From Alphaproteobacteria bacterium (lineage in GTDB: Bacteria > Pseudomonadota > Alphaproteobacteria > UBA828): DNA of 64,000 bases. Within the stretch, counting starts at the first letter, position 1. Every line of letters starts with the position of its first letter. The DNA lies in the NCBI GenBank assembly GCA_963422645.2, contig CAXXVO010000015.1:96001-160000 (forward strand). The letters run 5' to 3'. Positions 37,649-40,544 of this stretch are shown one piece after another. A model generated the notes under the pieces. It saw nothing but the letters and a program-made list of their open reading frames with translations. It was not told the origin of the DNA and did not search any database. Both the position numbers and the translations under genes were made by a program.

Positions 37649-37888
37649 GGTTGAGACCGTGCAATTGGTATCAAATTATACTATCAGACCTCGGGCGCGA
37701 CACCCAGCGAAAAACCGCCTGAAACAACCGAAATGTATCAGAATTCGTAACTACCCAGGTACCCCAATCCTGAGTTGAGGACGGTGATTATGGCGGCGGC
37801 CGCGGCCTGGTTCTGCCACCGCGATTGGTTCTTGACCTCATAGAGTTGCGGGACTATGGACTGCTCTCTCGCGTGACGGGAGCGGTCC

Positions 37889-38554
37889 ATGGGGTATTTC
37901 GGCTCGAAGGCGACAGCAGGTCTGTGCCAAGCGCTGATTGCGCTGATGCCGCCGCACTCCGTCTACATCGAAAGCCACCTTGGGGGCGGGGCGCTGATGA
38001 AGCGCAAGCCGCCGGCCGTGCGTTCGATCGGCATCGACCGCGATGCGCAGGCGCTCGAGGCCTTCGTCTGCGACTACCCGGTCGATCTGGTTCACGGCTG
38101 TGCCCATGACTTCCTGGCCTCGTTCCCGTTCCTGGGCCCGGAGCTGGTTTACAGCGATCCGCCCTATCTGCACGCGACCCGCCGCTCGGCGCAGCGCTAC
38201 CGCTTCGAGTACGAGGAGGCCGGCCACGTCGCGCTTCTCGCGCTGCTCAAGGCTCTGCCCTGCCAGGTCATGATCTCGGGCCATCCGTCGGCGCTCTATG
38301 ACGAGGTGCTGGCGGGATGGCGCCGGCTGGCGCTGCAGGTCACGACCCAGGGTCTGGTGCGAACCGAGGTCGTCTGGTTCAACTACGCCCCCGACCGGAT
38401 GCATTGGGCCAGCCACGCAGGCCGGAACTTCACCGACCGCCAGCGCATCAAGCGCAAGGCAGCCAACTGGGGCCGGCGCTACCAGGCCTTGCCGCCGGGC
38501 GAACGCCTCGCCGTGCTCGCCGCCATGATGGCCGTCGAGGCCGAAGACACGTGA
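37889..38554 (+). CDS. DNA adenine methyltransferase (Dam/D12-like), IS passenger
   Basis: 221 aa; motif I ESHLGGGA, motif IV DPPY; RBS GGGAG upstream. Confidence 0.88.
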   Translation: MGYFGSKATAGLCQALIALMPPHSVYIESHLGGGALMKRKPPAVRSIGIDRDAQALEAFVCDYPVDLVHGCAHDFLASFPFLGPELVYSDPPYLHATRRSAQRYRFEYEEAGHVALLALLKALPCQVMISGHPSALYDEVLAGWRRLALQVTTQGLVRTEVVWFNYAPDRMHWASHAGRNFTDRQRIKRKAANWGRRYQALPPGERLAVLAAMMAVEAEDT

Positions 38555-40089
38555 CGGTGTCGCACTGGCACGAAGACCTCGCCGCCCGTAACGAGGCCTT
38601 CTGCTGCCTGAAGGAGCTTCTCGAGCCATCATCCCTCGCAACCACTGTCGTCGTTGCCGTCCGGGAATGGGGGCAGGGGCTGCTGCGATCAGCCACCGCG
38701 CTCGCCCGGGAAAATGCCGCACTCGAGCAGGAGAACGCGGCCCTGCGCGAGCGCATCGCCGAACTCGAGCGCAGCGCGGCCCTCAACAGCACCACAAGCA
38801 GCAAGCCCCCCGCCAGCGACGGGCTCAAGAAGAAAAGCGGAGCCCAGAGGCGCACCCAAAGCCAGCGCGGAAAGTCCGGCGGGCCCAGTGGCGGCCAGCC
38901 CGGCCACAAGGGAACCACCCTCGCGCGGAGCGACAGCCCGGACCGTGTCGTCGATCACCACCCCTCCACCTGTTCCGGCTGTGGCGTCGAGCTCTCGGAC
39001 GCCGACCGGCAAGGCGCGCCCGCCTGTCGGCAGGTCTTCGACGTACCCGAGCCGCAGCCTCTCGAGGTCACCGAACACCGCGCCCATCGCTGCCTCTGCG
39101 GCGCATGCGGCACGCTGACACGAGCCGCCTTCCCGCCGGGCGTCACCGCCCCGGTCCAGTACGGCCCTCGCATCACCGCTTGGGTGAGTTACCTGCTGTA
39201 CGCCCAGTTCGTGCCCGAGAAGCGTCTGGCCGAACTCATGAGCGACATCTTCGCGGTGTCCATCTCCACTGCCACGATCGCCGCCATGGGCCGGCGCACA
39301 GCGCAGCGCTTCGAGGGCTTCCTCGACCATGTCGCCGATCTGATCCGCACGCAGGCGCCGGTCAAGCACCTCGACGAGACCGGCCTGCGTATCGCCGCCC
39401 GTACCCGCTGGCTCCATGTGCTGTGCACCCCGTTGCTCACCGTCCTGCGCATCGGCGAGGGACGCGGCGATGTCGAAAAGAACCTGAAAGGCATCCTCGT
39501 CCACGACGACTTCGCCCCCTACTTCACCATCAAGGGCGTCCGCCACGGCGCCTGCAACGCACATCACCTGCGCGAACTCCAGGCCCTGATCGACATCGAG
39601 AAGGAGGAATGGGCGGCGAGCATGCACCGCCTGCTTCAGCGCGCGCGCAGGGCCGCCCGCTTCGCCCGTGAGAAAGACCGTCAAGTCCCCGCCTCCCTGG
39701 TGGCCCGCATCTCAAGGGCATGGGACCGTATCCTCGAAGAAGCCATCGCCTTCCATGAGGCCCAACCGCCGCTCCAGATCGCAAAGCGAGGGCGAAAGAA
39801 ACGCCGCATCGGCCACAACCTCGCGCGCCGCCTTCAAAAGCATAAGGAGGGCTGCCTGCGCTTCCTCACCGACCTGCGCACGCCGTTCACGAATAACGAG
39901 GCGGAGCGTGACATCCGTATGAACAAAGTGCATGAGAAGATCTCAGGCGGCTTCCGCTCCCTGCAAGGCGCCTGCAACTTCGCCGGAATGCGCAGCGTCA
40001 TCGTCACCGCTCGAAAGCAAGGCTGGAACATCCTGCAAATCCTGGCGCACCCGGAACCGATGCAGCTGATCCCTATACTGCGCTCCTGA
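38551..40089 (+). CDS. IS66 family transposase
   Basis: As 2213-3751; GTGA overlap with the MTase stop. Confidence 0.93.
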   Translation: MTVSHWHEDLAARNEAFCCLKELLEPSSLATTVVVAVREWGQGLLRSATALARENAALEQENAALRERIAELERSAALNSTTSSKPPASDGLKKKSGAQRRTQSQRGKSGGPSGGQPGHKGTTLARSDSPDRVVDHHPSTCSGCGVELSDADRQGAPACRQVFDVPEPQPLEVTEHRAHRCLCGACGTLTRAAFPPGVTAPVQYGPRITAWVSYLLYAQFVPEKRLAELMSDIFAVSISTATIAAMGRRTAQRFEGFLDHVADLIRTQAPVKHLDETGLRIAARTRWLHVLCTPLLTVLRIGEGRGDVEKNLKGILVHDDFAPYFTIKGVRHGACNAHHLRELQALIDIEKEEWAASMHRLLQRARRAARFAREKDRQVPASLVARISRAWDRILEEAIAFHEAQPPLQIAKRGRKKRRIGHNLARRLQKHKEGCLRFLTDLRTPFTNNEAERDIRMNKVHEKISGGFRSLQGACNFAGMRSVIVTARKQGWNILQILAHPEPMQLIPILRS

Positions 40090-40544
40090 ACTTCTCCGGC
40101 TCATCCTGAGTATCGCTGTCCTCTCATCTTGTTCGCGACGCGGCGTTCATCATCCTCTCGCGCTCAAGAGAGTAGGCACCCCCGCGGCGTGGGGGCGTTG
40201 ACGCAAAAGGAACTGGCTTGTTCCATAAGAGAGAGGGGGTACCTGGGCAGTTACCAAGAATTCAAGGAGTTCCCGGCACGCTGCCCAGAACAGCCAGCAT
40301 CACGAGGTCAGGAAGTCTGAGCTTACCGGTCGCAGTCCGCAAGAGGGGCATCGTGAGCTGTGAAACCCGGCGACCCCAGAGGAGCACACGGGCGTCGCGT
40401 GGGTAGCGTTGTGCCGAATCCCAGAGAATTTTCACAGCAAGAACCTGGGCAGTTACATCGTTTCTTCAAGACAACCGTTGATTGTCTACGATTTTATGAG
40501 ATCGCAAAACAACACTATTTCGTAAATTGCCCTTTGGTTTGGCG

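Follow-up and report, generated by a model that had tools for sequence, protein, structure and literature searches.

A portable cassette of predicted promoter, putative operator and Dam-fold gene ahead of the transposase gene in an IS66-family insertion sequence

The window analyzed here is a 64,000-nucleotide stretch of alphaproteobacterial DNA (assembly GCA_963422645.2, contig CAXXVO010000015.1, positions 96,001 to 160,000; G000:C16:96001-160000 in our numbering), taken from a genome of 5.9 Mb in 23 contigs with ~67% G+C. At 37747-40254 on the forward strand it holds a complete insertion sequence (IS) of the IS66 family, 2508 bp long, which we call IS66-A1 and of which this copy serves as the reference. 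Between its inverted repeats lie a transposase gene and, directly ahead of it, a gene for a methylase-like protein with a promoter-like region of its own. The features of the reference copy are as follows.

37747-37765, + strand: left inverted repeat (IRL), reading GTAACTACCCAGGTACCCC; its tip is common to the sibling element A2 and to IS66-B, both described below
37831-37859, + strand: predicted cassette promoter, with CTTGAC at 37831-37836, a 17-nt spacer and CTATGG at 37854-37859
37840-37857, no strand assigned: putative operator with half-sites ATAG and CTAT 10 nt apart, called from palindrome and conservation
37889-38554, + strand: gene for a 221-aa Dam-fold, methylase-like protein of the Upf31 family, assigned by homology and predicted fold
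38551-40089, + strand: gene for an IS66-family DDE transposase of 512 aa, with a GTG start overlapping the upstream TGA
40236-40254, + strand: right inverted repeat (IRR), whose reverse complement reads GTAACTGCCCAGGTACCCC

A first-pass annotation of this DNA had described 19-bp inverted repeats, a 221-aa open reading frame (ORF) with methylase motifs I and IV, a stop codon overlapping the transposase start and no restriction nuclease, and each of these points held. The two repeats match at 18/19 positions. ORF1 carries ESHLGGGA at residues 28-35 and DPPY at residues 90-93, its TGA (38552-38554) overlaps the transposase GTG at 38551 in the sequence GTGA, and only these two ORFs fill the element, with neither a third gene nor a nuclease between the repeats. 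IS66 ends typically begin GTAAGCG; both ends of IS66-A1 read GTAACT(A/G)CCCAGGTACCCC and share the GTAA beginning of the family. The transposase is of the IS66 DDE type, with matches to PF03050 (4.4e-41, 141.6 bits against a cut-off of 23.1) and NF033517 (3.6e-86, 289.7 bits against a cut-off of 180) and with DUF6444 and zf-IS66 present, and its residue 1 aligns directly after the upstream gene in relatives. The nearest plasmid-borne transposases are <50% identical and are labelled only 'IS66 family transposase'. As had also been stated, the tnpA and tnpB genes of canonical three-gene IS66 elements are absent, and the upstream slot is occupied by the Dam-fold gene. We take IS66-A1 to belong to the single-transposase, ISBst12-type group of IS66. 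It has in common with that group the IS66 DDE transposase with DUF6444 and zf-IS66, the lack of tnpA and tnpB, the 8-bp duplications and the terminal repeats, but it differs by the extra gene, with its own predicted promoter and putative operator, ahead of the transposase. A programmed frameshift that would fuse the methylase-like protein to the transposase was considered and rejected, as the 238 nt open in both frames (38317-38554) hold no slippery heptamer; a long overlapping open frame is expected here at 67% G+C.

Searches with the 221-aa protein returned no Pfam family at E<=0.01 and, by sequence, no Protein Data Bank (PDB) chain at E<=10, and the protein missed the thresholds of the D12 profile PF02086 (12.1 bits vs 22) and of TIGR00571 (22.1 bits vs 114.85). 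Its family is large, comprising 3706 proteins at E<=1e-3 in one collection and 5660 cluster representatives in another. Among 52 sequences that are 39-89% identical, D90, P91 and P92 are invariant and Y93, E28, G32, G34 and K7 are at least 90% conserved, and the protein thus has both the catalytic DPPY and the glycine-rich motif I, for binding of S-adenosylmethionine (SAM), of the D12 class. The AlphaFold2 model (pLDDT 92.4, pTM 0.86) predicts a Rossmann core ending in two long helices (181-199, 203-220), and its top PDB matches in Foldseek were E. coli Dam, DpnM and T4 Dam (E 2e-7 to 1e-5, TM-score 0.48-0.57). The helical target-recognition domain of Dam lies between the motif I region and DPPY. 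An inserted recognition domain is absent from the model, in which motif I and DPPY are only ~55 residues apart. The C-terminal basic helices are conserved across the family alignment, Upf31 included. Prediction of a homodimer gave a score of 0.11 against a mark of 0.42, which counts neither for nor against a dimer.

The gene is under purifying selection. The ratio of nonsynonymous to synonymous substitution rates (dN/dS) was 0.088-0.299 in all 20 pairs computed, and the value near 1 that the first-pass annotation had named as evidence against a function was not seen. Furthermore, 70 of the 72 gene matches in G000 are without an internal stop. Three loci from one assembly (L097-L099, at ~4080-4100) carry one extra G in the G-run coding motif I (HLGGGA) together with an intact transposase gene, and represent either a still-multiplying variant with a dead cassette or a long-read homopolymer error of assembly. 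In the relative G011, N-terminally short gene matches start at residues 29-30.

A tblastn search of plasmids identified 196 records with a homologue, all at <60% identity and 134 of them conjugative. IncP-1beta plasmids, in which the gene is annotated upf31.0, are among these matches, and Upf31 of pBP136 (locus L118) is 46.7% identical over residues 1-206 (93% cover, E 1e-52). By homology, the 221-aa protein is a member of the Upf31 family. According to the portions of Elg et al. (2025, PMC11997246) on which we draw, Upf31 did not restore GATC methylation (MboI/DpnI) and gave no single-molecule real-time (SMRT) signal in methylase-free E. coli. The same portions identify the 68 bp upstream of upf31 as a promoter whose activity is lowered by full-length Upf31 from 4.76 to 0.09 XylE units, a repression shown with a hybrid R751/pBP136 Upf31. 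The C-terminal domain was required, and mutations there lost repression and appeared to break dimerisation. The conserved IncP-1beta repeat CAGCATCG was named by those authors as the likely operator, and the motif order of Upf31 was described as group beta (PMC11997246, same portions); in the window protein, motif I (28-35) precedes DPPY (90-93).

The 160 nt upstream of the gene were aligned by eye in 20 element variants, and the resulting pattern was then counted over 80 loci from 28 assemblies, the best of 142 that were confirmed in species-representative genomes. In the window, TTGAC-N3-ATAG-N10-CTAT stands at 37832-37857, and CTTGAC-N17-CTATGG resembles the alphaproteobacterial promoter consensus. 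The second half-site continues into a -10-like hexamer (TATGGA, TATGGG or TATGCT) that lies 17 nt past the -35. The strict motif was found 55-68 nt upstream of the gene match in 74/80 loci. Its 22 sequence variants keep the half-sites unchanged and differ freely in the N10. Each of the 6 misses comes down to one changed base, in a half-site (L077, L078, L086, L110) or in TTGAC (L092, L108). Only 1 other match was found in 646,530 nt, on the opposite strand. When N3-5 and N8-10 were allowed, G000 yielded 79 sites, all within IS66-A1 (59) or its sibling A2 (20). A hairpin in the 5' untranslated region that would hide the ribosome site was dropped as too weak (-4.78 kcal/mol, covariation -0.06, compensatory change in 2/9 pairs).

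Palindromes with the same 10-nt spacing precede most of the 8 plasmid homologues compared. Four have TTGACA-N-CATCG-N10-CGATG(-CT), namely those of pSN1104-59, a P. aeruginosa megaplasmid, a Synechocystis plasmid and, imperfectly, pBP136; two have CATAG-N10-CTATG (Xanthomonas and Photobacterium plasmids); and two, from Sphingobium and Methylomonas plasmids, have no visible palindrome. The IncP-1beta promoter has the layout TTGACAGCATCG-N10-CGATGCT, with the palindrome between -35 and -10 as in the window, and in pBP136 TTGACA lies 62 nt before the upf31 ATG. The CATCG-type proteins form their own clade (100/99), indicating that operator type tracks the protein. The IS-borne protein and Upf31 are thus alike in family, size, Dam-like prediction and a palindrome with 10-nt spacing. 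They differ in the half-site, which is CATAG in the ISs and CATCG for Upf31, and are split by a long branch (0.54; 100/100); in addition, upf31 occurs as a single copy in the plasmid backbone, is believed to work together with KorB and has no transposase after it, unlike the IS-borne gene. In pBP136, the plasmid used experimentally, the right half reads CGAGA where pSN1104-59 has CGATG, and both its operator and its -10 are imperfect.

The promoter-operator-gene cassette is portable, as it occurs in two IS66 lineages, whose transposases are ~29% identical, and in an IS701-family element. A close IS66 transposase gene directly follows the gene in 61/80 loci, at or within a few bases of its stop; these transposases are 62-91% identical over the best segment, and three of the 61 loci (L051, L052, L077) are truncated or interrupted. 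At 10 loci (L101-L109 and the truncated L100) the IS66 transposase is only 26-31% identical while the upstream protein is still ~70% identical, and this distant lineage has repeats GTAACTACTCACCCC and 8-bp duplications. An IS701-family transposase comes next at 7 loci (NF049999, 1.4e-91). The IS701-type element is 2785 bp long with repeats CTCGACTTTGTACATTT, has a 5-bp CTNAG duplication in 6/6 copies examined, and is present within one genome in three copies that are 99.7-99.9% identical. The other 2 loci (L086, L089) are remnants sharing only 828 bp. The gene is always upstream of the transposase, on the same strand and adjacent or overlapping. A maximum-likelihood tree of 42 proteins places the IS-borne ones in a single clade (100/100; 21 rows, two of them representatives whose context is unknown). 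Within it the IS701-linked group and the window's group are sisters (99/97), and the distant IS66 group branches outside that pair. Together, the tree and the backbones indicate that the cassette entered the IS world once, as far as the sample shows, and then switched backbone at least once. Its distribution is patchy, the gene being found in 4/40 host relatives, in 5/41 genomes when G000 is included, and in 3/20 of the same genus; some of the short contigs assigned to metagenome bins of unusual phyla may be binned wrongly, and the range of phyla is uncertain to that extent.

Two further family links were examined and set aside. ISSp1, of the IS1380 family, lies beside the gene in one Sphingobium plasmid, but three plasmids with the same gene pair have other downstream neighbours, which points to coincidence. 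An IS630 transposase follows the gene in L086, but the 828 bp common to L086 and L089 comprise the gene and short flanks, as in a remnant with an unrelated insertion. The IS701-type element also has a third, divergent 95-aa ORF upstream of the cassette (L094 3475-3759, - strand; also in L110), with a weak DUF3024 match (E 3e-4, below threshold); the ORF is conserved in two elements whose DNA identity in this region is ~76%. In the public run X7, summed contig depth was hundreds to thousands over the methylase-like gene (37882-38539; contigs 90-95% alike) versus ~18 over the transposase gene (38540-40254); these depths are no measure of copy number, but the contrast would fit a gene riding on many backbones in that sample.

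IS66-A1 is a real, recently active IS. The genome contains 36 full-length copies at >=99.72% identity, of which 22 are flanked by a perfect 8-bp target duplication, as in other members of the IS66 family, along with 68 fragments at >=98% identity, a copy pattern far beyond chance. The duplicated targets are 38% G+C compared with 67% for the genome. A further 35 matches to the unit are <90% identical, and 20 of these span unit positions 108-2344 at ~82% identity and represent the sibling element A2, which has the same left tip, a right end reading ...CCTGGGCAGTTAC, its own 8-bp duplications and 20 near-full copies. The flanks of the 37747 copy, CAGAATTC and CAAGAATT, form a duplication with one extra A. 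Its empty target, ATGTATCAGAATTCAAGGAG, is present elsewhere in the genome and is bridged by contigs of two public runs.

Based on these results, we favour, with a probability of roughly 55%, the reading that an autorepressing cassette of promoter, operator and Dam-fold protein both drives and limits transposase expression in IS66-A1. Transcription of the whole element would start from the cassette promoter, 84 nt in from the left end, where the operator (ATAG-N10-CTAT) would sit in the spacer and overlap the -10. The Dam-fold protein would be translated first and the transposase would follow by translational coupling, as suggested by the overlap of stop and start codons (GTGA). The protein, probably a dimer formed through its C-terminal helical hairpin, would then bind the operator and shut down its own gene along with that of the transposase. 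Because it would act in trans on every copy, transposase supply would fall as copy number rises, with a brief burst in a naive cell. We thus infer that the 221-aa protein binds ATAG-N10-CTAT and thereby controls transposition. Among the three roles that had been proposed from the first pass, tuning of transposition fits best, although the route, through a conserved promoter and palindromic operator and by analogy with an autorepressor homologue, had not been foreseen. The proposal of a low-specificity methylase is not supported, as a promiscuous enzyme would light up the whole genome and Upf31 gave neither GATC methylation nor an SMRT signal in methylase-free E. coli in the portions of PMC11997246 used here. 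The same negative result disfavours a restriction shield and a spread of methylation through the host.

Several observations weigh against the autorepressor reading. A sigma-70 consensus scan of 37700-40300 returned 0 promoter-like sites, and the window's -10, TATGGA, fits TATAAT at only 3/6 positions; the promoter call is therefore based on conservation and on the homologue's assay. RNA data on the element were looked for and none were found, and run X20, which we guess to be RNA, gave one 166-nt contig within the transposase gene, from which no conclusion is drawn. The homologue that was studied is only 47% identical and works in an IncP-1 context alongside KorB, a protein missing here, and the presence of the repeat within the published 68-bp fragment is inferred from its position (PMC11997246, in the portions cited above). 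The IS701 and distant IS66 versions have a gap of 20-130 nt between the two genes, so coupling is not universal and an internal promoter is possible. Furthermore, 36 full copies and 68 fragments in one genome mean that any brake would be leaky or recent. Finally, the catalytic and SAM-binding residues (D90, P91, P92, Y93, E28, G32, G34) are kept, and a pure repressor needs none of them; this strict conservation suggests that SAM binding or adenine flipping may still matter, perhaps at the operator.

The same residues are at the centre of a second explanation, partly compatible with the first, which we consider rather unlikely: that the protein is a site-specific adenine methylase with its own operator as its only site, methylation of ATAG/CTAT setting promoter activity and linking it to hemimethylation at the replication fork. 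The catalytic and SAM motifs conserved family-wide, the predicted fold closest to Dam, DpnM and T4 Dam, and a palindromic site with adenines in each half-site all agree with such an enzyme. Its 4+4 bp gapped site (longer with the flanking C and G) would be rare and was probably absent from the upf31 expression construct, and for that reason the published negative SMRT result, as given in the portions of PMC11997246 we rely on, would not detect operator methylation. Those portions of PMC11997246, however, report no family member with demonstrated methylation, and autorepression in E. coli is explained there by binding alone. The protein is also without the helical recognition domain of Dam, reaches a TM-score of only ~0.5 to Dam and falls below both the D12 and TIGR00571 thresholds given above. 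A reading that joins the two functions, in which the protein binds and also methylates its own operator as a portable epigenetic controller, sensing copy number through dose and the replication fork through hemimethylation without a host methylase, is in our judgement unlikely. If true, it would explain both the uptake of the cassette by DDE transposons that are unrelated (two deep lineages within IS66 and one of IS701) and the unvarying catalytic residues despite no genome-wide methylation.

It is very improbable, in our view, that the protein is an ordinary orphan adenine methylase of many host or carrier sites, providing a shield or an epigenetic effect, with the upstream motif merely a promoter. 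Relatives are named 'DNA adenine methylase' in the sources, DPPY is conserved, and 134/196 plasmid records are conjugative, a setting where anti-restriction genes are common. Nevertheless Upf31 showed neither GATC methylation nor an SMRT kinetic signal in a methylase-free strain (PMC11997246, portions as above), the element has no partner nuclease, and half-sites that stay fixed around a variable 10-nt gap resemble a site bound by a protein, beyond a mere promoter; a shield would also leave the constant position ahead of the transposase unexplained. We give little credence, too, to the idea of a selfish passenger without a role in transposition, with the transposase under separate control. Transporter ISs with passenger genes including methyltransferases are known (PMC11891212 citing Siguier et al., in the part used here), and the multi-copy L097-L099 variants with their +1 frameshift in motif I and the N-terminally shortened matches in G011 would suit a dispensable gene. 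The frameshifts, however, fall within a G-run and could be errors of assembly, and intact copies could supply the protein in trans. A passenger also accords poorly with a gene that is under purifying selection and is always upstream of the transposase, on the same strand and adjacent or overlapping, with a cassette that carries the sole conserved promoter-like element in the stretch from the left end to the transposase gene, and with three backbones that took it up in the same arrangement.

Upstream repressors of transposase genes are known in IS1 InsA, IS3-family OrfA and Tn3 TnpR. If the autorepressor reading holds, the 221-aa protein would be similar to these: a small protein that binds DNA, is encoded beside the transposase gene or ahead of it, and represses the element's promoter. 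It differs from them by its unrelated fold (a Rossmann methyltransferase), by an operator that is internal to the element and not part of the terminal repeat, and by a cassette that moves between IS families. Dam methylation controls IS10/Tn10 and IS50, where the methylase is the host's and the site is GATC. A possible likeness is promoter adenine methylation tied to transposase expression; in IS66-A1, in contrast, the enzyme-like protein is element-borne and methylation is only a predicted possibility. Each of the 36 full copies has a non-transposase gene between its IRL and IRR, as has the IS701-type element between its own repeats, so these elements qualify as transporter ISs. IS220 (IS1380 family) is listed as a transporter IS with a methyltransferase passenger in the part of PMC11891212 used here, citing Siguier et al. 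Compared by that description only, IS220 likewise has a methyltransferase gene within its inverted repeats and has a transposase of another family, whereas in IS66-A1 the gene opens the transposase operon and is found in more than one IS family. In a literature search that did not cover ISfinder, TnPedia or REBASE, we met no account of this gene in an IS66 or IS701 element, nor of the operator.

IS transposase is thought to be kept low by weak promoters, frameshifting or host factors. An exchangeable promoter-operator-regulator cassette passed between IS families would be a new mode of transposase control, and would exemplify regulatory modules moving between selfish elements. For Upf31, a puzzle in being methylase-like yet showing no methylation, ATAG-N10-CTAT and CATCG-N10-CGATG provide a precise candidate site. 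Moreover, the thousands of metagenome 'DNA adenine methylase' calls (3706 and 5660 in the two collections) may in part be IS regulators, and such regulators should not count as host epigenetic or defence genes.

The window also contains other copies of IS66-A1 and a relative without the cassette.

28526-31033, - strand: second complete IS66-A1 copy, inside the left end of IS66-B, with flanks GACAAATC / AAAAATCG and no target duplication
1639-3916, + strand: right part of a split IS66-A1 copy (unit positions 231-2508), located by blastn
31034-32771, + strand: IS66-B, a single-gene IS66 relative without the cassette; a second copy lies at 51473-53209, - strand

Three nearly identical copies of the unit had been counted here. 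When the unit was compared with the window by blastn, 37747-40254 and 28526-31033 proved complete and 1639-3916 partial; near-identity was borne out, with 1 mismatch/2508 in the former of the two additional copies (28526-31033) and 100% over the covered part of the latter. The lack of a duplication around the 28526 copy is expected once copies have recombined. In the 1639-3916 copy the methylase-like gene is without its first codons (protein match of residues 28-221 at C16:97632-98213), and its left 235 bp lie at G000:C16:94845-95079, just beyond the window, with another IS between both parts. Elsewhere in the genome, the full copies G000:C9:531722-534228 and C6:391794-394300 hold swapped duplication halves (GAATACAT/GGAGAGTC and GGAGAGTC/GAATACAT), a signature of inter-copy recombination that rearranged the genome.

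The left end of IS66-B, read from another genomic copy as GTAACTGCCCAGGT, confirms the 14-bp tip that it was said to have in common with IS66-A1, and IS66-B indeed has no methylase gene. Its transposase region is ~67% identical in DNA to that of IS66-A1. The IS66-B transposase (31129-32679) lies in two frames that switch near 31850, a 516-aa ORF and a 260-aa ORF with the conserved C-terminal half; the switch may reflect a frameshift mutation, programmed frameshifting or an error of assembly. A hotspot for insertion of A1 and A2 covers the first ~100 bp of IS66-B (31034-31130), and insertions after GATTTGTC, GGCGTTTC and GAAATGAC recur in several genomic copies.

A tandem pair of ISs of another type, 2387 bp long and 99.96% identical, occupies 32917-35303 and 35360-37746. 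Their transposase matches PF21804 Transposase_29 (3e-72), and its reading frame is broken into two ORFs, of 436 aa (N-terminal) and 572 aa (C-terminal). The right-hand copy is the one into which IS66-A1 at 37747 has inserted. Many shortened IS66-A1 fragments in the genome (e.g. G000:C9:638427, C5:441324, C8:869098) start at unit position 2071, 2093, 2274, 2284 or 2329 and are always preceded by AGGTCAGGAAGTCTG, the terminus of the Transposase_29 element; this constant junction indicates that the Transposase_29 IS seems to insert repeatedly into IS66-A1 or to delete from it.

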